NCBI RefSeq assembly: GCF_054482595.1
Contig: NZ_JBTHVH010000004.1
Length of the DNA stretch: 64,000 nucleotides
From: a plasmid
Direction: 5' to 3' (one strand)
The translations under genes and the position numbers were made by a program. The notes under the pieces were generated by a model. That model saw nothing but the letters and a program-made list of their open reading frames with translations. It did no database searches and was not told the origin of the DNA. Below, piece by piece: positions 1,964 to 60,796 of this stretch (positions within the stretch are counted from its first letter, which is position 1; the number at the start of each line of letters is the position of its first letter).

Positions 1964-3463
1964 TTAGTTTTCAACTAACTGAACGACGACCAGCCTGCCG
2001 CCTTCCTCCTTTGACAGAACAAACTGAGCGTTATTCGTCAGTTCAATTTTTTCCCCAATGGCAATCTGTCGTTTATCCGGTAATGACATAAGCCCATTTA
2101 TGCCTTCATTTACTAACCACCACTGATCGTTATGGAAAACAAAATACCCAACTCGTTTCCTTTGTGCATCGGTTGTGCGCTCATTTGGCGCAATGAGGCG
2201 ATTCACATGCCACGCATAGATTGACTGCCCGCTCCACACCATCAACCGGTGGTCGTCAGGACGATAACTGCCTTCCTTTCGGGATGAATATAAATTTAGA
2301 ACCGGTAATTTACCCTTGTATGGCGTACCGCAGTAGGGACAAACCGGCTTTGTCTTACCTGAGAAAACGTACCATTTCTGTTCACACGCCTTGTTCTGGC
2401 AGGGCTGTATCAGATCGACTGTTTTAACCAGGGCACTTTCCCACTCATCGGCGGTCGGGCGTTTATTGGCATCGTGTAAGCCATCAATAAAGGCGCGTTC
2501 AAACAAAGGCGTCAAATAAGGGCCCATGATGGTGTAAGGAATTTTCTCCGGGTCAGCCCAGGGCAGTGAAAAGGAGGATAGCTGACTGACTTTGACTGCA
2601 TTGCTTTTGTCTGTCGGATGTTCAATGAAGAGTGCCTTCTCACCCATAGATAAGGTCTCATCACGTACTTCATCCGACATGTCATGTATTTTTCCGCCAC
2701 GTAGCGGATGACGGAAGAACAGATACATGTAGATAAGCACCGACAGCGCATGACGGTCAGTAGAAATGCTTGGCAATACGCGGTTCGGATCCTCTTTGGA
2801 AAGATGGCTGGTTTTCACCACTTCCGGAGCGATAAAATCCGGGGTGCCCACGACGTCGGGAGGATACTTTCCAGGGACAACCAGGCCGTCTACGTCAATG
2901 ATGCAGGCATGTCCCATTTCTGGATCGATAAGCACGTTTTTATAGCTTAGATCGCTGTGACAGAGACCTGCCGCATGCATCCTTCTGACGGCTCTTGTTA
3001 GCAGCAGACAGACCTTGAGATAGGTAAGCGTATTGCCTCGTTCACGTGGGTCGAGAAATTTATTCTGGTTGCTGGCGCTGGCAAACCATTTGCCTTCCTT
3101 TTCACGGCCTTTTATGCCAAGAAAATCATCGTTTTTAGAGCCGTATTTAAAGAAAAAGTAGCTTTTGTAGGTTGGAACCACGATGCCGATTTTATCCCCA
3201 TGCTCAACAACGTGGGTCGGCCAGCAAAACAGGTCCTTCCAGTATTCACCTCCGGACTGGCCAAAAATGTTTTGCCTGTAGCGTCCGGTGATCATATCAA
3301 TCCGATCCCGGGCCTGCTCGTTCTGCGGTTTATGATAAAAAGCGACGACGTATGATTTATCAGGCGAGAAGTAAACATCCTTCATCGAGCCCGAACCAAT
3401 TACCTCGTCAACATACTGGACTGTTTCGCCGTCCTTTGTTTTGCACGTAACAATATTTGCCAT
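1964..3463 (-). CDS. Ser/Thr protein kinase with C-terminal Cys-rich zinc-ribbon region (ter-linked TerY-P type)
   Basis: Kinase motifs in translation: Gly-rich 'IGSGSMKDVY', catalytic loop 'HSDLSYKNVLID', 'IIDVDG' in the DFG position, 'FIAPEV' (APE). C-terminal 'CQNKACEQKW...CPYCG'. ATG at 3463 (M19 of the track ORF) sits 26 bp after the upstream stop. Confidence 0.8.
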   Translation of the reverse strand: MANIVTCKTKDGETVQYVDEVIGSGSMKDVYFSPDKSYVVAFYHKPQNEQARDRIDMITGRYRQNIFGQSGGEYWKDLFCWPTHVVEHGDKIGIVVPTYKSYFFFKYGSKNDDFLGIKGREKEGKWFASASNQNKFLDPRERGNTLTYLKVCLLLTRAVRRMHAAGLCHSDLSYKNVLIDPEMGHACIIDVDGLVVPGKYPPDVVGTPDFIAPEVVKTSHLSKEDPNRVLPSISTDRHALSVLIYMYLFFRHPLRGGKIHDMSDEVRDETLSMGEKALFIEHPTDKSNAVKVSQLSSFSLPWADPEKIPYTIMGPYLTPLFERAFIDGLHDANKRPTADEWESALVKTVDLIQPCQNKACEQKWYVFSGKTKPVCPYCGTPYKGKLPVLNLYSSRKEGSYRPDDHRLMVWSGQSIYAWHVNRLIAPNERTTDAQRKRVGYFVFHNDQWWLVNEGINGLMSLPDKRQIAIGEKIELTNNAQFVLSKEEGGRLVVVQLVEN

Positions 3464-3488
3464 ATTGATCACCGAAGAAGCGTATCCC

Positions 3489-5129
3489 TTACCACAACAC
3501 CGCAATAGTGCGGTCATCGTGGTTCCCTGTGGAGAAAAAGTTAAGCCAGTCGCCTAACCTCTCAGGCGCAATACTGGCGTCTGTAAGGACAGGGATGAGC
3601 TCATCAAGGAGACGGGTCCATTTTTCGTCACTGCGAAGCCCGTTATCTGTCTCAAACAGAGGGTCTGATACGCCATCTGTCATGAGGATCAAGTGAGATA
3701 CATCATTCCATTTACCCACGCTGATGCGGCCGCTAAACGAGGGGTCTGCGATAATGCTCTGGTCAAGAAAGCGGGTTTGTCCTGCGTATTCTCCGCTATC
3801 GGGATTTCCCAGTATCCTGACTTTACCGGAAGGGCTGTATGCACCTATCGCACCATCACCAAGCCAGAATGCAGCCGCAAACAGCTCGTTATCAGTTCGT
3901 AGCGCTACAGTTGCCAGTAGGGTTGTTGAATAGGATTTCACAGGTTGTTCTGCACAAATGGCTTCGTTCTGGATACTGTTGACCGCGAGCGTAGCTGCCT
4001 GTTTAAAATGATGAAGCATGGCGTTTATGGTTGCCTGCTGATCGCTCCCTTCCCACGCCGTGATGTGCTGCTTTAGATGGACGCCTTTCAAACCACTGAG
4101 CTGATTGAAAAGGTAATCGCCAGCCGTTTGGACTGCAATCCGGGAGCCTTCCCGGGAATTTACCGCACTACCGGCCCCGTCTGCGACCAGCATGACAGAC
4201 CATCCTGTTTCCTGGCAGTGGTTGATATAGAAGTCGTCATCTCTGAAGCTCCCGGCATGCTCATGAGATCGTCCCCGGCGACTGGCGGCAGCAATACGTA
4301 TGTCACCCCTGACCAGGCCAGCAGCGTCCAGATGGGACTTAGGGTAGGAAGCGTCTGCTGGTGGCTCTACCACCTTCCACAGGCTTCTCGGATCGGGATT
4401 GACTATAAAAAGCTGTTTTGTTTCGCATTCGTCGTGCGAAGCGCATGACCAGAGTACTGAAAGCTCTATATCGCCGCTTTCGGTGGGTGTACCTGTCAGC
4501 AACTTATGCTCTTTGTCAAAGGTCAGGCCAATGTTCCTGGGAAAGACAACGTCCCTGACAGTAGCCTGCTGGCCCTCATCCAGAACTATAGCAACCGGCG
4601 AAGAGAAACGTTCGCCTGCGCGGGCGTTGGGAATAACTATTTTAGCTCTCGGGGGAACGGCAGGTGGCACAGCTAATCCGGCCCGCTGCTGGCCTGTCGG
4701 TATCTGCCCGGGTTTTAATACCAGGGAAGACAGGTTTTCGTCTTCCCTCTGTGCTGGTTTATCAAATTCGTAATAAGGCATCAGCTTCCAGAACGGAGGA
4801 TGAGGTTCATTTTCTGGCAGGGGTTGCAGTAATGGTGTATCGGTAGCGTCAATGCCCGGGTTATCAGCATCACTTACGACCGTTTGTTGCTGATCGGAAA
4901 GGCTGGATGCTGACGAGGGGGCGATCTCTGCGTCGTTATAACCTTCGCTAACCCGCGCAGATAAACCCTGTGCAAGGCTCTCAATCCGCTCTTTAAGCCG
5001 CATAATCTCTTCAGTAAGGGAAGGGTCGTGCGATAGAAGAAAAAGCCGCTCACCTTCTACAGGGTGGCCCAGCTCAGACAGCACTAAGCGGATAATCTTC
5101 TCTTCAAGTAAAACATTTTGCGACATCAA
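3489..5129 (-). CDS. PP2C-family Ser/Thr protein phosphatase with long N-terminal extension
   Basis: PP2C signatures 'MLVADGAGSAVNSREGS' and 'LILMTDGVSD'. Its stop overlaps the downstream kinase region; its start overlaps the upstream vWA stop (ATGA). Confidence 0.8.
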   Translation of the reverse strand: MMSQNVLLEEKIIRLVLSELGHPVEGERLFLLSHDPSLTEEIMRLKERIESLAQGLSARVSEGYNDAEIAPSSASSLSDQQQTVVSDADNPGIDATDTPLLQPLPENEPHPPFWKLMPYYEFDKPAQREDENLSSLVLKPGQIPTGQQRAGLAVPPAVPPRAKIVIPNARAGERFSSPVAIVLDEGQQATVRDVVFPRNIGLTFDKEHKLLTGTPTESGDIELSVLWSCASHDECETKQLFIVNPDPRSLWKVVEPPADASYPKSHLDAAGLVRGDIRIAAASRRGRSHEHAGSFRDDDFYINHCQETGWSVMLVADGAGSAVNSREGSRIAVQTAGDYLFNQLSGLKGVHLKQHITAWEGSDQQATINAMLHHFKQAATLAVNSIQNEAICAEQPVKSYSTTLLATVALRTDNELFAAAFWLGDGAIGAYSPSGKVRILGNPDSGEYAGQTRFLDQSIIADPSFSGRISVGKWNDVSHLILMTDGVSDPLFETDNGLRSDEKWTRLLDELIPVLTDASIAPERLGDWLNFFSTGNHDDRTIAVLW

Positions 5130-6166
5130 CCTCTCCCTCTGTTTACGTCGAAGTTAGTGTTTCCGCCATCATTGCTGAATGACAGACCTGTTTCACACCA
5201 CGGGCAGATCACGTCATCCGGGCCGTCAATGCACAGCAATTTTCCGCATGAGCACAGGGCAAACGCACTGGCATTACCGCAGTGAGGGCAACCCGGTACG
5301 CCATGCAGTTCGCTGGTGTTTACCTGCAAACCGGTAGCGGTGGCATCTGACCATGCAAAATAGTCTTCATCGATGGGATAGCATCCGGCAATATTAAAGC
5401 TGTTCAGGTTCAGGCTGAAATCGAGCCCGGAAATCCTTGCTGGTGGCCGTTCATACTTCATCAGATACGGACGACGGGTCTTGCTGCAACGGCCGGTAAG
5501 CGTAACGCAGTTTTCGTCGTACGCTTTTACTGGCTCGTCCTTGGCCAGCCGGACTATGTATTCAGTCTGGCTGAGCTCAGGTTGTTTGTCGTCTCCGACG
5601 CTGCGGCTGTGCGCCGTAACCGAGGCTGTGATCCATTTGATGAAGCGGGTAAAGTCCCCTTCCTGAGACTCGGTGAACAGCATGACATTCTCTGTCAGTT
5701 GCCGCAGGGTATTCAGGTCCGCTGACGGCCCCAGGCCAACGGCAATGAGATTCACTTTACTCGCGTAGTGATCCTTCCAGCGCTTCACTTCTGCGGTTGT
5801 GTCGTCAGTCGGACGTCCGTCGGTAAGGAGATACACGACGGGTTTCCAGTCGCCTTTAGCCTCATGAGTGGTTTTTCTGACCTGGGTATCAATTTGTACG
5901 GTCAGCTCACGCAATGCGGCCCCAAGGCTCGTACCGCCGCCAACGGGAAGGCGGGGAGGGTAGAACGAGGCAATTTCGTGAAGAGGTACAATCGTACGGG
6001 CTACACCGGCAAATGCGATTACCGAAACCCAGGCTGTTTCAAGTGCGTGTGGATCCTTTCTTAAATCTCCGATGATCATTTGCAGACCATCAGTCATTTT
6101 TTTCAGGTTTTCACCAATCATGGACTCTGAACAGTCCAGGACAAAAAACACGGGAAGGCGTCTCAT
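5126..6166 (-). CDS. vWA-domain protein (TerY-like) with C-terminal zinc ribbon
   Basis: MIDAS motif 'FFVLDCSESM' directly after the start 'MRRLPV' (ATG at 6166 with GAGGAAAA RBS); C-terminal 'CPHCGN..CSCG..CPWC'. The track ORF N-extension to 6370 is rejected. Confidence 0.75.
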   Translation of the reverse strand: MRRLPVFFVLDCSESMIGENLKKMTDGLQMIIGDLRKDPHALETAWVSVIAFAGVARTIVPLHEIASFYPPRLPVGGGTSLGAALRELTVQIDTQVRKTTHEAKGDWKPVVYLLTDGRPTDDTTAEVKRWKDHYASKVNLIAVGLGPSADLNTLRQLTENVMLFTESQEGDFTRFIKWITASVTAHSRSVGDDKQPELSQTEYIVRLAKDEPVKAYDENCVTLTGRCSKTRRPYLMKYERPPARISGLDFSLNLNSFNIAGCYPIDEDYFAWSDATATGLQVNTSELHGVPGCPHCGNASAFALCSCGKLLCIDGPDDVICPWCETGLSFSNDGGNTNFDVNRGRG

Positions 6167-6251
6167 AATTTTCCTCGTACGGCTGGTACGGCCAGCAGAA
6201 AACGTTGCTGTACAGAAAGGTGCTGCCCGGAAAGCAGCACCTTTCTGTCTG

Positions 6252-6893
6252 TCAGAGCACCAGCTGGATTTCTGGTGGAGGAGGGGGAAGGGTATCAGTT
6301 CCGTTATTGATCCCCGCGCTTGTGCTGCCGGAAGACACGCTGGCCGATACCCATTTAAAGAAACCTGCAAACGCGGTTGAATCTAGCGTCTCCAGAGACA
6401 CAACCTTATCGGTGAGCTGTTTTAAGTGCTCATGGCCTGCTTTAGGACCAACGGCGCAGGCAATGATGGATCCGAATCCCCGGCCGCGAATCGCTTTTAC
6501 CGCTTCACCGTACGCCAGGGCATCAGAAGGGGTTCCATCAGTCATCAGGAATACCAGAGGACGCCAGTCTCCTTTTGTATCACCATCTGAGCGACGTACA
6601 TCCCGTTCAACACACTGCATCAGACATTCAAGGGCAGCACCGGTGAACGTCCCGCCTGCGCTTGGCACAACGATGTCAGAAAACTGGAAGTCTTCCAGCG
6701 GCGTGAGAGGAATGAACTCACGCGCCTCATTGTCATAGGTGATAATGGAGATATGAACGCTTTCGAGGGCGTAGGGATCCTGGCGAAGAGCGCTAAGCAT
6801 CGCCTGAATTCCAACGTTAACGGAATGGATGGACTCACCGCGCATCGAGCCGGATGTGTCGATAACAAGGTAAACAGGCAGGCGGCGCATCAC
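6252..6893 (-). CDS. vWA-domain protein, TerY-like
   Basis: 'MMRRLPVYLVIDTSGSM' gives the DxSxS MIDAS motif at the N-terminus; 213 aa. Confidence 0.8.
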   Translation of the reverse strand: MMRRLPVYLVIDTSGSMRGESIHSVNVGIQAMLSALRQDPYALESVHISIITYDNEAREFIPLTPLEDFQFSDIVVPSAGGTFTGAALECLMQCVERDVRRSDGDTKGDWRPLVFLMTDGTPSDALAYGEAVKAIRGRGFGSIIACAVGPKAGHEHLKQLTDKVVSLETLDSTAFAGFFKWVSASVSSGSTSAGINNGTDTLPPPPPEIQLVL

Positions 6894-7531
6894 ATGTAAT
6901 TCCTCAGGTGCGAGACAAACGAATCTGATTCTGAAGGCTCACCAATTGCCCTGAGTTTCCAGCCTGTAGCCTCGCGTATCAGCTCGGCAAAAACCATGGA
7001 GCGCTGGCTGGCGAAGGCGGGTCCGCCAGAAAGATCGAATCGTGCCATTTCAATATTACGGGCATCTACTGCCCGGATGAAGGCATTCTGAACTTTACCA
7101 AAGTGCTGCTGGAGCTTTTCACCATTGTAGATCTGAACGATGAACACAATTTTCTCGTACTGAGCGTCAAGGGAATTCAGGCGCACAATAATTTGCTCAT
7201 CGTCACCATCACCGGCTCCGGTTCGGTTATCGCCCGTCAGCCAGATATTTCCTGACTTATGGCGAAGGCTGTTGAAAAAGATGATATCGCCATTCACAAG
7301 CGTTGGTTTACCATTTTCCACATTGCCGAGATCGGTCACCTTTCCGGCTGAATTACACAGGAAAGCGATCACATCAAGGTCGTATTCTTCTTCTTTTTTA
7401 CCAAAGATCCCGCCGAGGAAACCTTTCTTTTCCTCATTAATATCCCAACCCAGGCCGATAGTAACGGACGAGAGATCGTATTCATTTTTTTTCAGGCTTA
7501 CGCCCTGGCCTTTGCTCAGACTGACAGACAT
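6890..7531 (-). CDS. terX: TerD-family protein (TerX-like)
   Basis: TerD-family Ca-binding motif 'GDNRTGAGDGDDEQI'; paralogous by eye to terZ/terD/terE in this window; overlaps the downstream gene by 4 bp. Confidence 0.8.
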   Translation of the reverse strand: MSVSLSKGQGVSLKKNEYDLSSVTIGLGWDINEEKKGFLGGIFGKKEEEYDLDVIAFLCNSAGKVTDLGNVENGKPTLVNGDIIFFNSLRHKSGNIWLTGDNRTGAGDGDDEQIIVRLNSLDAQYEKIVFIVQIYNGEKLQQHFGKVQNAFIRAVDARNIEMARFDLSGGPAFASQRSMVFAELIREATGWKLRAIGEPSESDSFVSHLRNYM

Positions 7532-7553
7532 GACATCCCCTTAATTAATAAAA

Positions 7554-8192
7554 TTATAAGACCACGTTTACTTCTGGCGGCGGCGGTGGCAGGTCTTCAA
7601 GACCGATCACTTCTTTTTTGCTGGACTCCACTTTCTGACTGCCTACCGAAATGCTCGCACTGACCCATTTAAAGAAAGCTTTAATCGTCGAACTGTCAGC
7701 TGTATCGAGCTGAACCACGATTTCAGTGATTTCTTTGAGGACGCTGGTATCGGCATCATGCCCGGCTGCACATGCCACAACAACGCCGGTTCTGGCCGCT
7801 TTAAAGTCATTCAGGCCTTTACGCCAGTCATCATTCGGACTTCCATCCGTCATCAGGAATACAAGGGGACGCCAGTCACCTTTAGTGTCAGCCGTCGTTT
7901 TCTGTACTTCTTTGGCAATGGAGCTGGCCGTGAGGGAAAGCGCTTCGCCAAGAGAGGTGGTGCCGCTGGCTGTTAGTGCTGGCATCTGGAAACTCAGGAG
8001 GTCTGTCAGGGGGACTGCCTGTCGGGCTGAAGAATCAAAGGTGATCACTGACACGTAAGCCGTTTCGAGTGCATACGGATCCTGTTTCAGCGTGGTAAGC
8101 AGCGTCTGAACGCCATTCTTAACCGCTTCGATAGGCTCTCCGTGCATAGAGCCGGACGTGTCGAGTAGCAGATATACGGGTAAGCGTCTCAA
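7554..8192 (-). CDS. terY: vWA-domain protein TerY
   Basis: 'RRLPVYLLLDTSGSMHGE' MIDAS motif. Start assigned to TTG at 8192 preceded by AAGAAGGAA, matching the other vWA paralog N-termini, rather than the track GTG at 8273. Confidence 0.75.
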   Translation of the reverse strand: MRRLPVYLLLDTSGSMHGEPIEAVKNGVQTLLTTLKQDPYALETAYVSVITFDSSARQAVPLTDLLSFQMPALTASGTTSLGEALSLTASSIAKEVQKTTADTKGDWRPLVFLMTDGSPNDDWRKGLNDFKAARTGVVVACAAGHDADTSVLKEITEIVVQLDTADSSTIKAFFKWVSASISVGSQKVESSKKEVIGLEDLPPPPPEVNVVL

Positions 8193-8611
8193 ATGTAATT
8201 CCTTCTTAAGAGATCGGAAGAGGAGAGTAGTTTCAGGAAGAGGCCAGAGTTTGTAGATTTGATAAAACGGCACGACATCTGTCGGGTGGAGATTAAATAC
8301 TCAGAAGCGGCATTAAAGAAATAAGTTAACCACCATTGAATTACCGACATGTGAATGGCCTCTTATCAGAGAAAAAAATTCAGACCGTACTGGAATATAA
8401 ATTTCTGAAAAAAACTCCGGCAAAAATAAACTTTCTTATGTATGAAAATCATCATACATCACAGATCTGCATGAATGGAGTGTAAATCGCCCAAAGATTG
8501 ATGTGTAGCACAAGAGGATGTCAAGACACCAGGTTTTGTAGGCAGAAAGGCGCTGCTGACATTGCGGGAGGAGAATAGATCAAAACTCCGTCACGCAGAT
8601 ACAGAGGTGAA

Positions 8612-8641
8612 ATATGACAAAACCGGGGTTTTCACCCCGGT
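8612..8641 (-). terminator. Rho-independent terminator candidate downstream of terW
   Basis: Hairpin arms 'ACCGGGG'/'CCCCGGT' followed on the minus strand by a U-rich run; lies 15-40 bp after the terW stop. Confidence 0.5.
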
Positions 8642-8654
8642 CTGAGATTTAGCG

Positions 8655-9122
8655 TCAGGACTTTTTAGCGCTGTATTCTTTTATCAGTTCATCAACGGAG
8701 TGCAGAGCCAGCTTCTCTACCGCTTCACTTCGGGTCGAGCCACTCAGCGCAGCCAGACGGTCAATTTTTCTTAAAATCCGCATGCGTAGCGATAATGACA
8801 CGGCTGTTTTTTTATCCTTATCGAGTACGACCTTCCCTGTGGACTCACCGGTTTTCAGTTCAGCATTCTGTGCGAGCGCTTCATTCATCCGGCGAAGGGT
8901 CTTTTTATCCAGCTGGCCCGGATTAACGAGATGGTAGGAATGACCTGCCTTGCTGTATTTGATCTCCGCAGAATATGACTCGCGTAGCTCTTTGAGTGCC
9001 CGGGTTAATGTCGGCTCTGAGCATTCCAGACTGGTTATAATGTCGGCAGCGGAAACGGGCTTGCCGGTGCCCAGTAAGTTGGCAAGCTTAAAAATCCGGG
9101 CCTGTCTGGTATTTAATTGCAT
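8655..9122 (-). CDS. terW: TerW-like small regulatory/DNA-binding protein
   Basis: 155-aa ORF in the position and size of terW between the terY operon and the biosynthesis operon; the N-terminus looks helix-turn-helix-like. Identity is from recalled ter locus organisation. Confidence 0.65.
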   Translation of the reverse strand: MQLNTRQARIFKLANLLGTGKPVSAADIITSLECSEPTLTRALKELRESYSAEIKYSKAGHSYHLVNPGQLDKKTLRRMNEALAQNAELKTGESTGKVVLDKDKKTAVSLSLRMRILRKIDRLAALSGSTRSEAVEKLALHSVDELIKEYSAKKS

Positions 9123-9139
9123 CGTAAGATTTAGCCTGC

Positions 9140-10348
9140 TTAAAGGGTTAGTGGTTCAATAGGCTGAAAAATGAAGGTACTGCTCATCTTTCGAATAACC
9201 GGGTGATCGCCTAACGCTTCAACCGGATCAATGTGTTCTAAGCCTGCAAAATTTACTGACGACATCTGGCTGCGACTGCATTTGCAGGACAGGATATACT
9301 CATCCTCCAGATAGCCGGTCCGCTTACTGACCCGTTGCGTAAAGCCTGACACAATCACGTTGTCGAACGGTAGCGTATGTAAAACGATACCGACCAGGCG
9401 GAACAAGCAGCCATGGACGTGGCGGGCATAGTTTTCGCGTACGGCTTTTTGCGTCATGGCTTTTTCCGTCAGCTCCGTGCCCCGGGCATTAACGCCGTAA
9501 ATCTTATCAGGGAAATCTTCAATCTCAGCTAAATCAACATCCAGCAGGACTGCTGATAGCTCCGGCTTTACTTCAAATGCAACAAGCGTTTCACGCGGCC
9601 ATTCAGTTTCTGCCAGCACACCCGCCAGGTATGATTCGAAAAACGCGGCGTCTGTCCGGAACTGCTGCCGGGCATCTGCCTGAGCCGTGGCGAGCCGTTT
9701 TTCATGTTCTTCAGCCTCAAACTTCCAGTTTGCATACTGTTCGGCCCAGGCCGTCCGTTGTTGCTGGTACCGGTGCTGTCGAAGGGTATTCTCACGCTCC
9801 ACATCAATCAGCTCCTGCTGCCACCGGCGAAGATTTTCGGCGTGGCGCTCAGCTTTAGCTGATTCCGATTCAAACCATTTACCCAGAAAACTAATGCCTT
9901 CGCTCTCGGCAGGCTTTTCCGGCAATGCAAGATAGTCTGGCTTTTCTGGACGCACCGGTGCCGGAACCTGAAAAGGCGACGTTCTGTTATGCAGGTATAC
10001 TGCTTCCAGCTCTGCCCAGCTGATGCCTGTTTTAGGATCCGGCGTCAGCTCGTGAATATTACGGATTGCGGTCACCGCTGACATGAGATCAGCGGCTTCC
10101 TCCTCAAGCGCCTGTCTGAGCCCCGGGTCGGTAGCCGTCCGGTTCCCACCTCCGGAACGCGCGGCCCGATCAAGCCGGGTACGGTAACTCAGCCCGGTAC
10201 CGGGCAAGCCCAGATTGGCATAGGTCCCCCGGCTTCCAAAAGAAACGGAAGCACCTCTCGGCCCGACACTCAGGCTCGGTGCACCGTTACTCAGGTTGAG
10301 GCGAACACCAGGAATAATGTTGATCGACTTTCTGAATCTGAACCCCAT
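9140..10348 (-). CDS. DUF4236-like hypothetical protein
   Basis: N-terminus 'MGFRFRKSINIIPGVRLNLS' matches my recollection of the DUF4236 signature; the remainder is Gln/Glu-rich and coiled-coil-like; ATG at 10348. Confidence 0.55.
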   Translation of the reverse strand: MGFRFRKSINIIPGVRLNLSNGAPSLSVGPRGASVSFGSRGTYANLGLPGTGLSYRTRLDRAARSGGGNRTATDPGLRQALEEEAADLMSAVTAIRNIHELTPDPKTGISWAELEAVYLHNRTSPFQVPAPVRPEKPDYLALPEKPAESEGISFLGKWFESESAKAERHAENLRRWQQELIDVERENTLRQHRYQQQRTAWAEQYANWKFEAEEHEKRLATAQADARQQFRTDAAFFESYLAGVLAETEWPRETLVAFEVKPELSAVLLDVDLAEIEDFPDKIYGVNARGTELTEKAMTQKAVRENYARHVHGCLFRLVGIVLHTLPFDNVIVSGFTQRVSKRTGYLEDEYILSCKCSRSQMSSVNFAGLEHIDPVEALGDHPVIRKMSSTFIFQPIEPLTL

Positions 10349-15372: not shown

Positions 15373-15694
15373 TTTTTTTAATTATCCGGAACGCCATGCA
15401 AATTTATGATTGAGAAGTGAGTCTATGAGTGTCTACGCTACATGTCAATCATAATATGATTAATAACTTCAGTGGTTATGGAGTGCGTCAGTGTTTTTTT
15501 AGTACCTTATAACGTATTGATATTTAAATTAAAAATAGAAAAATGAACACCATGAAAAGGATTTATTTTTGTGTTTTTGAAGAAAACTACCAAAATTTCC
15601 CTTGTCAGAGAACTTCATCATGATATGATTTTCTTCGTCAGTTACTAAATATACCTTTGATTGTCTCGGTCATTACCATTTTAAGGAATAAAAC
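15373..15694. promoter_or_regulatory. AT-rich divergent control region between the biosynthesis operon and terZ
   Basis: 322-bp non-coding, strongly AT-rich gap between divergently transcribed operons; no specific promoter elements assigned. Confidence 0.4.
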
Positions 15695-17933: not shown

Positions 17934-18974
17934 ATGGTTTCCACACACATCGGCTTCCCGACTGAAACGGTCATTGTTTTTATTGCGCTTTCAGTCGGTG
18001 CCATCTTTATTGACCTGTTTATGCACCGTGATGACAAGCCTATCTCGCTGAAGAGTGCGGCGCTCTGGTCCGTATTCTGGGTTGTGGTTGCGATGGCATT
18101 TGCCGGTTTCCTCTATATCCACCACGGTGCTGAGGTTGCCAGTCTGTTTGTCACGGGTTATGCGCTGGAGAAAGTGCTGTCGGTCGATAACCTGTTCGTC
18201 ATGATGGCCATCTTCTCCTGGTTCGCCGTTCCGGATCGTTATCGCCACCGTGTTCTCTACTGGGGGATCATTGGTGCCATTGTCTTCAGGGGCATCTTTG
18301 TCGCCATCGGTACGAGCCTGCTGAGTCTGGGGCCGTACGTTGAAGTTGTCTTCGCTATTATCGTTGCCTGGACAGCGGTCATGATGCTTAAAAGCGGTGA
18401 TGACGATGATGAAATTGAGGATTACTCCCAGCATCTGGCTTACCGCATGGTTAAACGCTTCTTCCCTATCTGGCCGAAGCTCAGAGGGCATGCCTTCCTG
18501 CTTAACCAGAAGGAAGTGGATGCTGAACTGGCGAAACCAGAAAACAGCGATGTCACCATTGGCCGTGGTAAAAAAGCGGCGCTGTATGCGACCCCGCTGT
18601 TCCTGTGTGTAGCTGTGGTTGAACTCTCGGACGTAATGTTCGCGTTTGACTCGGTACCGGCAATCATTGCCGTCAGTCGTGAACCGCTTATCGTCTATAG
18701 TGCCATGATGTTTGCTATCCTGGGCCTGCGTACTCTGTACTTTGTCCTTGAGGCACTGAAACAGTACCTGGTTCATCTGGAGAAGGCCGTTATCGTGCTG
18801 CTGTTCTTCATCGCGGCAAAACTCGGCCTGAATGCGACCGATCACATCTGGCATCATGGTTACAGCATCGCGGCAACAACCAGCCTGTATGTTGTACTGG
18901 GTGTACTGGCGCTGGGCATTCTCGCAAGCGTCATGTTCCCGGGCAAACCTGAATCTGAGGAAAAGGGGAGTTAA
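17934..18974 (+). CDS. terC: Tellurite resistance integral membrane protein TerC
   Basis: 346 aa with multiple hydrophobic segments, in the expected position. Confidence 0.85.
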   Translation: MVSTHIGFPTETVIVFIALSVGAIFIDLFMHRDDKPISLKSAALWSVFWVVVAMAFAGFLYIHHGAEVASLFVTGYALEKVLSVDNLFVMMAIFSWFAVPDRYRHRVLYWGIIGAIVFRGIFVAIGTSLLSLGPYVEVVFAIIVAWTAVMMLKSGDDDDEIEDYSQHLAYRMVKRFFPIWPKLRGHAFLLNQKEVDAELAKPENSDVTIGRGKKAALYATPLFLCVAVVELSDVMFAFDSVPAIIAVSREPLIVYSAMMFAILGLRTLYFVLEALKQYLVHLEKAVIVLLFFIAAKLGLNATDHIWHHGYSIAATTSLYVVLGVLALGILASVMFPGKPESEEKGS

Positions 18975-19022
18975 TCCCCTTAAGTGTTAACCTGAACAAT
19001 TACTAATCGAAGAGGTTATTTT

Positions 19023-19601
19023 ATGAGTGTTTCTCTTTCCAAAGGCGGGAACGTCTCCCTGAGTAAAGCAGCTCCGTCAATGAAAAACGTCCTGGTGGGC
19101 CTTGGCTGGGATGCGCGTTCAACAGACGGTCAGGACTTTGACCTGGATGCTTCAGCGTTCCTGCTGGCCTCAAACGGCAAAGTGCGCGGCGATTCAGATT
19201 TCATCTTCTATAACAACCTGACGTCATCTGACGGTTCCGTAACCCATACCGGTGATAACCGTACCGGTGAAGGTGATGGTGATGATGAATCGCTGAAAAT
19301 TAAACTGGACGCCGTCCCGTCTGATGTTGACAAGATCATCTTCGTTGTCACTATCCATGATGCTCAGGCTCGTCGCCAGAGCTTTGGTCAGGTATCCGGT
19401 GCGTTTATTCGCCTGGTCAATGACGATAACCAGACTGAAGTCGCTCGCTACGATCTGACCGAAGATGCGTCCACTGAGACTGCCATGCTGTTCGGCGAGC
19501 TGTATCGCCACAATGGTGAGTGGAAATTCCGCGCAGTGGGCCAGGGTTATGCTGGTGGTCTGGCATCTGTATGTGCTCAGTACGGCATTAACGCGTCCTG
19601 A
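19023..19601 (+). CDS. terD: Tellurite resistance protein TerD
   Basis: '[15 protein letters not shown]'; 192 aa. Confidence 0.85.
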
Positions 19602-60108: not shown

Positions 60109-60277
60109 GCTTAATTTGGATTATTTTTTGGTTCAGGTTCTAAATTTATTGTGATTATTCTGCCTTTAAGTTGCAAAAAGATTGGTTTTAAGCCCGCCCA
60201 TGAAATAATGACTTGTTAAAATACTGCCTGTAAATAGGCTTGTGGATACATGTCTGTACTCAACAAATCAAGGTGAA

Positions 60278-60796
60278 ATGATGTTTTTTTTAACAAAGTT
60301 ACTTTTGCCCATCATGATTGTTGTATTCCCAGTGGCGTCCTGGGGGAACTCAACAACTTTTGAGGCAAAGGTGGTTAAGATTGTTGACGGTGACACCATA
60401 ACTGCGTTGGATGCTCAAAACACAACCATCAAAATACGGATGTATGGTATAGACGCTCCTGAATCTAAACAGGCTTTTGGCCAAAAAGCAAAACAGGCCT
60501 TAACCACAGCTATAGCAACTAAAATCGTTACCGTGATAGACCATGGTACGGATATCTATGGCCGTATGTTAGGTACCATCTGGTTAGATGGATATGATAT
60601 CAATGCCTCTATGGTGGACAGTGGATATGCGTGGGTTTATCGGTTCGAAGATAACGCCATTGTCCCTGGCTATATCAAATATGAATCCGCAGCACAAAAG
60701 GAGGCAAAAGGGTTATGGGCAGACACCAACCCTGTCCCACCATGGCAGTGGAGACAGGCAAACGAAAAGCCCAGAAAGGTGAAAGAGAAGAAATAA
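60278..60796 (+). CDS. Thermonuclease (staphylococcal-nuclease-like) family protein with signal peptide
   Basis: N-terminal hydrophobic signal; 'VVKIVDGDTI...IRMYGIDAPES' SNase-like core; ATG at 60278 with AAGGTGA RBS. Confidence 0.7.
   Translation: MMFFLTKLLLPIMIVVFPVASWGNSTTFEAKVVKIVDGDTITALDAQNTTIKIRMYGIDAPESKQAFGQKAKQALTTAIATKIVTVIDHGTDIYGRMLGTIWLDGYDINASMVDSGYAWVYRFEDNAIVPGYIKYESAAQKEAKGLWADTNPVPPWQWRQANEKPRKVKEKK

Follow-up and report, generated by a model that had tools for sequence, protein, structure and literature searches.

The window analyzed here, a 64,000-nucleotide stretch of an IncHI2 plasmid (contig NZ_JBTHVH010000004.1), contains a ter locus in which two adjacent minus-strand genes at positions 8655-10348 were the subject of this study: terW and a gene for a 402-aa protein with a DUF4236 domain. 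The 2.3 kb around these two genes showed 100% identity with many IncHI2 (R478-type) plasmids of E. coli, Salmonella, and Enterobacter and approximately 98% identity with the chromosomal tellurite-resistance island of E. coli O157:H7. The RefSeq annotation of an identical plasmid lists, on the minus strand, kinase-like, PP2C phosphatase, TerY-C, and vWA/TerD/vWA genes (the "signaling" genes, 1964-8273), then terW, and then genes for a "DUF4236 domain-containing protein," an HpcH-like lyase, StiP, a hypothetical (HAD-like) protein, a PRTase, and an ATP-grasp protein (the "biosynthesis" genes, up to 15372); terZABCDEF lies on the plus strand, divergent from the biosynthesis genes.

In the direction of transcription, the co-directional string reads ATP-grasp, PRTase, HAD-like, StiP, lyase, DUF4236, and terW, and the same order was kept in Shewanella, Marinomonas, and Serratia plymuthica, whose DUF4236 relatives were 51-53% identical to the window protein. 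The upstream neighbor of the pair is the gene for the HpcH-like TIM-barrel C-C bond lyase (PF15617; 10359..11315, minus strand) of the ter biosynthetic operon; 10 nt separate its stop codon from the start of the DUF4236 gene, and 17 nt separate the DUF4236 stop codon from the start of terW. The two genes are therefore the promoter-distal members of a seven-gene ter "biosynthetic" operon. A first-pass annotation made from the letters alone had placed and named both open reading frames (ORFs) as RefSeq does, and the gaps bear out its description of a tight fit between terW and the HpcH-like gene. It had also set the pair between two operons; as the last two cistrons of a conserved co-directional string, the genes form instead the 3' end of the biosynthetic operon and no separate unit.

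IncHI2 resistance plasmids, E. coli O157:H7, and hypervirulent Klebsiella commonly carry the ter cluster. The locus in the window is the same as the ter loci of R478, of the E. coli O157:H7 island, and of K. pneumoniae pK2044 (terZABCDEF, the biosynthetic operon, terW, and terY/X), and databases and publications already cover the locus, terW and its operator region, and also record that the DUF4236 gene exists. As a sequence feature the pair is ordinary. Of all members of the locus, the DUF4236 gene has been studied least, and the published "terWY1XY2Y3" nomenclature omits it. The new leads are the loss of the gene with relics left behind, its recurrent linkage to ter genes across different layouts, and the contexts of relatives beside HXS genes and in prophage immunity regions.

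The DUF4236 gene (9140-10348, minus strand; product WP_000506887.1) has an AAGGAA Shine-Dalgarno sequence 7 nt upstream of its ATG. Its DUF4236-type N-terminus, predicted in the first-pass annotation, was confirmed by Pfam: residues 3-56 matched positions 1-55 of the 55-position model PF14020 (E = 2.4e-21, 76 bits). The match spans the full model yet covers only 14% of the protein, and the Pfam search of the 402-aa protein returned no other domain. The domain (codons 3-56; 10181..10342, minus strand) is Gly/Ser-rich and very basic (isoelectric point 11.9, net charge +6.5) and is predicted to form a six-strand beta-meander. An AlphaFold2 model built from a 32-sequence alignment had a mean predicted local distance difference test (pLDDT) score of 87 and consisted of six short strands (residues 8-58), helices (75-123), a proline-rich linker, a long helix (162-230), and an alpha/beta domain (255-388). 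The long helix (codons 162-230; 9659..9865, minus strand) includes the invariant W208, and its 69 residues are 16% Glu, 16% Ala, 14% Gln, and 13% Arg, which agrees with the Gln/Glu-rich helical region noted earlier; the coiled coil proposed with it received weak support, since the hydrophobic fraction at heptad positions a and d was 0.60 in the best phase as against 0.35 overall, and the prediction was for a monomer.

The C-terminal domain (codons 233-402; 9143..9652, minus strand) is acidic, with a net charge of -8.8, and reached a pLDDT of 95.7 when modeled alone. It carries invariant or nearly invariant motifs, W250-P-R-E-T, D270-x-D-L-P-E-x-E, Y307-A-x-H-x-H-G, G335-x-x-Q-R, D349-x-Y, and R386, in which W250-P-R-E-T, D270/D272/E275, Y307, H312, Q338-R339, Y351, and R386 are invariant and E277 and H310 nearly so; this conservation suggests a binding pocket. 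The helical region and this conserved domain have no family model, although a search with the protein minus its DUF4236 domain collected 964 cluster representatives at 50% identity that share the C-terminal domain. Full-length homologues numbered 672 in one search, 213 of 260 collected homologues carried both the N- and C-terminal ends, and membership in the family with DUF4236 domain, helix, and C-terminal domain was supported by a match to phrog_38135 (E = 2.6e-38).

The protein had neither a membrane-spanning segment nor a signal peptide and is therefore probably cytoplasmic. When the PDB was searched by sequence, the family profile, the N-terminal domain, and the C-terminal domain each gave chance-level matches only and no solved relative, and Foldseek against AFDB50 retrieved family members alone, with uninformative names. 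NCBIfam gave no match for the 402-aa protein, and PADLOC-DB 2.0 returned 0 families at E values up to 0.1. The first-pass description of a protein with no known function thus stands, and the literature examined gives the gene none; that literature excludes the main Ter comparative survey (Anantharaman, Iyer and Aravind 2012), which possibly discusses the gene. Between the plasmid and O157:H7 copies, the ratio of nonsynonymous to synonymous substitution rates was 0.24 for the DUF4236 gene, 0.12 for the lyase gene, and 0.05 for terW, on the basis of few substitutions. Synonymous sites were slightly more conserved at DUF4236 codons 256-300.

To place the gene among ter loci, 80 loci, one genome per species, were collected by lyase alignment (lyase identity 62-97%) and scored with the window proteins. 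The gene was intact in 7, broken in 1 (Lelliottia, locus L010), and absent from 72. It is therefore not a core component of Ter, since most loci with the biosynthetic operon do without it, and it is dispensable, most loci keeping the Ter core in its absence. The terW gene followed the lyase gene in 75 of the 80 loci, and the median lyase-terW gap in loci without the gene was 178 nt. In a tree of lyase, StiP, and PRTase, the gene-bearing loci fell in three separate places, each beside sisters that lack the gene.

Relics of the DUF4236 ORF were detected in 23 of 64 empty lyase-terW gaps, compared with 0 of 64 shuffled gaps. Among them, Enterobacter asburiae retained the start codon and the last 48 nt of the ORF, Brenneria three collinear pieces, Lonsdalea 230 nt, and Yersinia nurmii a piece interrupted by stop codons. 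The broken copy of Lelliottia sp. WAP21 (L010:10971-11888) is a pseudogene in two frames with approximately 285 nt missing, and its sister locus in Enterobacter asburiae (L009) retains only a 232-nt remnant; these two loci show decay of the gene caught in progress. Relics in so many of the empty gaps show that the gene is ancestral to the locus and was deleted many times. The first-pass annotation had taken absence from most ter loci as the mark of an incidental insertion; the absence was indeed found, and the insertion was contradicted by the relics and by the different layouts described below.

One piece of the ORF (9493..9538, minus strand), which encodes DVDLAEIEDFP, persists as a relic in many gene-less loci and recurs in the lyase-terW gaps of L068-L087. 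In nine Xenorhabdus species it is nearly invariant, lies 60-100 nt ahead of terW, and has the sequence TTGATT-16 nt-TATGCT, which would pass as a promoter. The piece could represent a terW promoter, either embedded or exapted, or simply the remnant of the gene that fades most slowly.

Within E. coli, the DUF4236 gene and the lyase region were each present in the same 956 of 5426 complete genomes. The gene is thus kept 1:1 with the ter locus in E. coli, as it is on IncHI2 and Klebsiella plasmids. A Klebsiella study lists it as KP1_p257, found in 98.9% of ter plasmids, and predicts no function for it (PMC8115787, S1 Table).

Counting the standard order, ter loci of at least five different gene orders contained relatives 32-53% identical to the window protein. 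With X denoting the DUF4236 relative, Psychromonas has TerD-TerD-X-TerA and no biosynthetic genes, and a metagenomic locus (L090) has three TerD genes followed by Na/Ca exchanger-X-PRTase-HAD-StiP-HAD-TerB-vWA-TerY_C-PP2C. Further layouts were lyase-X-PgpA and lyase-PgpA-two genes-X. On the Pseudomonas aeruginosa megaplasmid pWTJH12-KPC (L176, 131459-132658), a 32%-identical member stands in a reordered locus, StiP-lyase-HAD-TerZ-TerA-TerB-TerC-TerD-TerD-hypothetical-DUF551-X; approximately 128 Pseudomonas plasmids carry a copy like this one. Since the linkage survives so much rearrangement, the family appears to be functionally tied to Ter, and from these five gene orders we regard the DUF4236 gene as a Ter-associated accessory gene.

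The downstream gene, terW (8655-9122, minus strand), encodes a 155-aa protein 100% identical to RefSeq TerW (WP_001176767.1), the known repressor of ter operons. Its matches to DNA-binding families were weak and consistent with one another: HVO_A0261_N (5e-4) and HTH_11 (1.3e-3) in Pfam and a WYL-type helix-turn-helix profile (4e-5) in PADLOC, with a marginal RHH_1 match at the C-terminus (E = 0.016). These matches point to an N-terminal winged-helix domain of the helix-turn-helix type and, probably, a C-terminal ribbon-helix-helix.

An intrinsic terminator hairpin (8620..8643, minus strand) with 10 pairs (6 G-C) and a T-run lies 11 nt past the terW stop codon. Its predicted RNA folding energy was -20.4 kcal/mol (z = -4.1), and none of 200 shuffled sequences folded as well. 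The first-pass annotation was therefore right about the terminator. Its further suggestion, that terW is separately regulated, does not follow, because the hairpin ends the whole co-directional operon. A promoter scan found no sigma-70-like site on the minus strand within 9123-10346, that is, none inside the DUF4236 ORF, and together with the 17-nt gap, which is too short to hold a promoter, this result means that the terminator is no sign of separate terW control. A terW promoter inside the DUF4236 ORF was considered and set aside after the scan; synonymous-site conservation was not raised at the 3' end of the ORF.

The TerW operators lie at the other end of the operon. The operator core ATCATNNNATGAT (ATCAT-N3-ATGAT) had only two exact matches in the window, ATCATAATATGAT at 15448..15460 and ATCATGATATGAT at 15617..15629, both between terZ and the ATP-grasp gene. 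The first of them overlaps the -35 element of a minus-strand promoter-like site (15448..15420, TTGACA-17-TAGACT) that would drive the genes from ATP-grasp to terW. The second overlaps the -10 element of a plus-strand terZ promoter-like site (15602..15629, TTGTCA-16-TATGAT with TG). Both palindromes are in the list of predicted TerW operators in the supplement of a Pectobacterium study, two of which come from R478 (PMC7843439). The role of TerW as transcriptional regulator of the ter operons is attributed to Valkovicova et al. 2011 in the citing papers PMC7843439 and PMC12054061, and its binding to a palindromic operator in the terZ promoter region is likewise known from cited literature. Compared with this published system, the protein is identical and both predicted operators are present.

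The first-pass annotation had proposed mobility shift assays of TerW on 8274-8611 and 15373-15694. The latter is the already published TerW-binding region and contains both predicted operators (PMC7843439); the former held no convincing site, with a best position weight matrix score of 0.7, compared with 31-32 for the two real sites, both of which were in the training set. TerW would thus repress both divergent operons, its own included. Since an operator overlaps the predicted -35 element of terW's own operon, autoregulation is suggested, and the gene spacing and operator positions together indicate that terW is most likely co-transcribed with the upstream operon and autoregulated in the present layout.

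The arrangement differs in Pectobacterium, the sole case with documented separate control of terW, which there responds to PhoP independently of the upstream operon (PMC7843439). In the Pectobacterium locus (L085) the DUF4236 gene is missing, which leaves a 353-nt gap ahead of terW, whereas the present terW stands 17 nt behind the DUF4236 gene and is probably reached by read-through.

Relatives of the DUF4236 protein also occur outside ter loci. Three relatives of 32-34% identity (L006, L093, and L094) adjoin HxsD/HxsB/HxsC radical-SAM genes, often with an integrase, SNase, or GmrSD_C gene nearby. A 2026 report described HXS (HxsA-D) as an anti-phage system that prevents phage DNA from entering (PMC13128918). 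The DUF4236 protein is not among the four defining HXS proteins and is unmentioned in that report, and the window contains no HXS genes. A relative in Truepera stands alone among housekeeping genes. Ion-transport genes adjoin three members of the family, a K+ channel (L006:11374-12081), a Kef-like channel (L096:3389-4186), and a Na/Ca exchanger (L090:6823-7908); these neighbors may be due to chance or may hint at a link to ion flux.

Neighboring genes were examined for 11 full-length relatives in prophage-like viral contigs. Four lie directly after a CI-like repressor gene (L097, L098, L099, and L103) and three directly after an ImmA-like metalloprotease gene (L102, L104, and L117), two of the latter being followed by a serine integrase. 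The relatives are on the same strand as the repressor genes, inside the lysogeny/immunity module, and prophages usually place lysogen-expressed genes there, after the repressor. In lambda, the exclusion genes rexA and rexB are likewise next to cI and are co-transcribed with the repressor. The relatives resemble rexA/rexB in following CI-like or ImmA-type genes immediately and in the same orientation, and some also have an ion-channel-like neighbor; neither their sequence nor their fold is known to resemble RexA. Other systems considered among the closest were the cytoplasmic C-terminal metal-binding domains of CDF transporters (MamM, MamB, and CzrB), the ring-building motif, and BON domains. 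Among isolated phage genomes (INPHARED), no full-length relative was found, only the N-terminal DUF4236 module fused to other sequences; the DUF4236 domain is a module widely shuffled among phage proteins.

The DUF4236 gene is thus an ancestral and dispensable accessory of Ter loci, and its product, a conserved three-domain protein, belongs to a large family that mobile elements carry. We further propose, with a probability of about 0.35, that the protein is a sensor or adaptor on the exclusion side of Ter and not on its biosynthetic side, encoded in an operon with a co-transcribed, autoregulated terW. The title of a 1995 study (Whelan 1995) attributes phage inhibition and colicin resistance to the R478 ter cluster, and the protein may, with low certainty, serve this side of Ter (phage and colicin resistance) rather than the making of a ter metabolite. 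It is unlikely to be a biosynthetic enzyme, since relatives occur without the pathway and 90% of the loci keep the pathway without the gene. In the proposed mechanism, the C-terminal domain would bind a ligand or divalent cation, the basic N-terminal domain would attach to an anionic partner such as the membrane, a nucleic acid, or a second protein, and the relatives in prophage lysogeny modules and beside HXS would do the same job as the ter copy.

Several points weigh against this proposal. The defense role is drawn from gene neighborhood, and few distant contexts were sampled (four genomic places and 11 viral contigs). PADLOC lacks a model for the DUF4236 protein and also does not match the adjacent TerY/PP2C/kinase and TerC/TerD proteins, and the loss of the gene in 90% of species shows that the Ter core works without it. 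Co-transcription of terW is drawn from spacing and operator positions, and 9493-9538 could house an internal promoter in the DUF4236 ORF.

A wider proposal, which we hold only tentatively, is that proteins with a DUF4236 domain, helix, and C-terminal domain form an unrecognized, widespread family (approximately 1000 clusters at 50% identity) of accessory proteins for exclusion or defense on mobile elements. Its members would be expressed from prophage immunity operons, and two resistance systems linked to the envelope, Ter and HXS, would have recruited them. On this view the ter copy would connect the Ter machinery of R478 with the exclusion of phages and colicins, and the C-terminal domain would be a new ligand- or cation-sensing fold. 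The neighborhoods of the relatives are a lead, not a discovery, that could link Ter to phage exclusion.

The main competing explanation, doubtful in our view but still to be taken seriously, is that the gene is autonomous cargo carried on mobile elements, perhaps encoding a stand-alone protein for exclusion or abortive infection, and sits in defense and stress islands, ter loci included, without being functionally linked to Ter. The family extends far beyond ter loci, as the 964 cluster representatives show; one member stands alone in Truepera, others lie in prophage lysogeny modules or beside integrases and HXS, and 72 of 80 ter loci have lost the gene without losing the remaining locus. Such cargo would not be expected to hold the same intra-operon position, with gaps of 10 and 17 nt, from Enterobacter to Shewanella, nor to diverge in step with its locus, as the DUF4236 gene does; and chance clustering in islands does not predict that members as little as 32% identical stand among ter genes in four further gene orders. 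A place in the pathway, as final enzyme or as carrier for the nucleoside-like metabolite that the ATP-grasp, PRTase, HAD, StiP, and lyase proteins produce, would explain why the gene is the next cistron after the lyase gene, 10 nt away, why a relative lies directly ahead of the PRTase gene in L090, and why the invariant polar residues of the C-terminal domain (D, E, H-x-H, Q-R, and Y) are of the active-site type. We consider it improbable, because relatives are found where no such pathway exists and nine-tenths of the loci run the pathway without the gene.

Equally hard to sustain is a role as partner of the adjoining repressor (TerW, or CI or ImmR/ImmA in prophages), such as a signal-sensing co-regulator or an anti-repressor. 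A repressor gene does adjoin the DUF4236 gene in ter loci of standard layout and, among the prophage relatives, in 7 of the 11 contexts; all eight gene-bearing loci of standard layout, including the broken one, keep terW, and the five loci that lack terW also lack the gene. TerW is nevertheless kept and working without the gene in 67 loci, among which the Pectobacterium terW is a responsive regulator, and no repressor gene is adjacent in the Psychromonas, L090, Pseudomonas, or HXS contexts; a place after a prophage repressor is more simply read as expression in the lysogen. Least probable, and very much so, is a C-terminal nuclease domain of the PD-(D/E)xK restriction-endonuclease-like type. 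It is suggested by UniProt, which applies the name "Restriction endonuclease" to two identical entries from E. coli and "VRR-NUC domain-containing protein" to a relative from Berkiella, and by the SNase or GmrSD_C genes near several relatives, but neither the predicted fold nor the motifs fit. These labels were rejected, as the protein does not match the alpha-beta-beta-beta-alpha-beta core with D...(D/E)xK catalytic residues that defines such nucleases.

A "TerY-P" defense system has been described. At E = 1e-5, PADLOC-DB 2.0 had no profile match for the TerY1, TerY-C, PP2C, kinase, TerC, and TerD proteins of the window (1964-8273 and 17934-19598), and on PADLOC and NCBIfam grounds we do not claim the adjacent operon as a recognized defense system. 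An SNase-like ORF on the plus strand of the window (60239-60769) is 36% identical to the SNase beside the DUF4236 relative in L006; lying 50 kb from the ter locus, it is probably an unrelated plasmid nuclease. A contig labeled Chryseobacterium sp. 18061 (L025) contains a ter locus encoding proteins 96-98% identical to their IncHI2 counterparts, and its presence in a Bacteroidota assembly looks like contamination or a very recent transfer.

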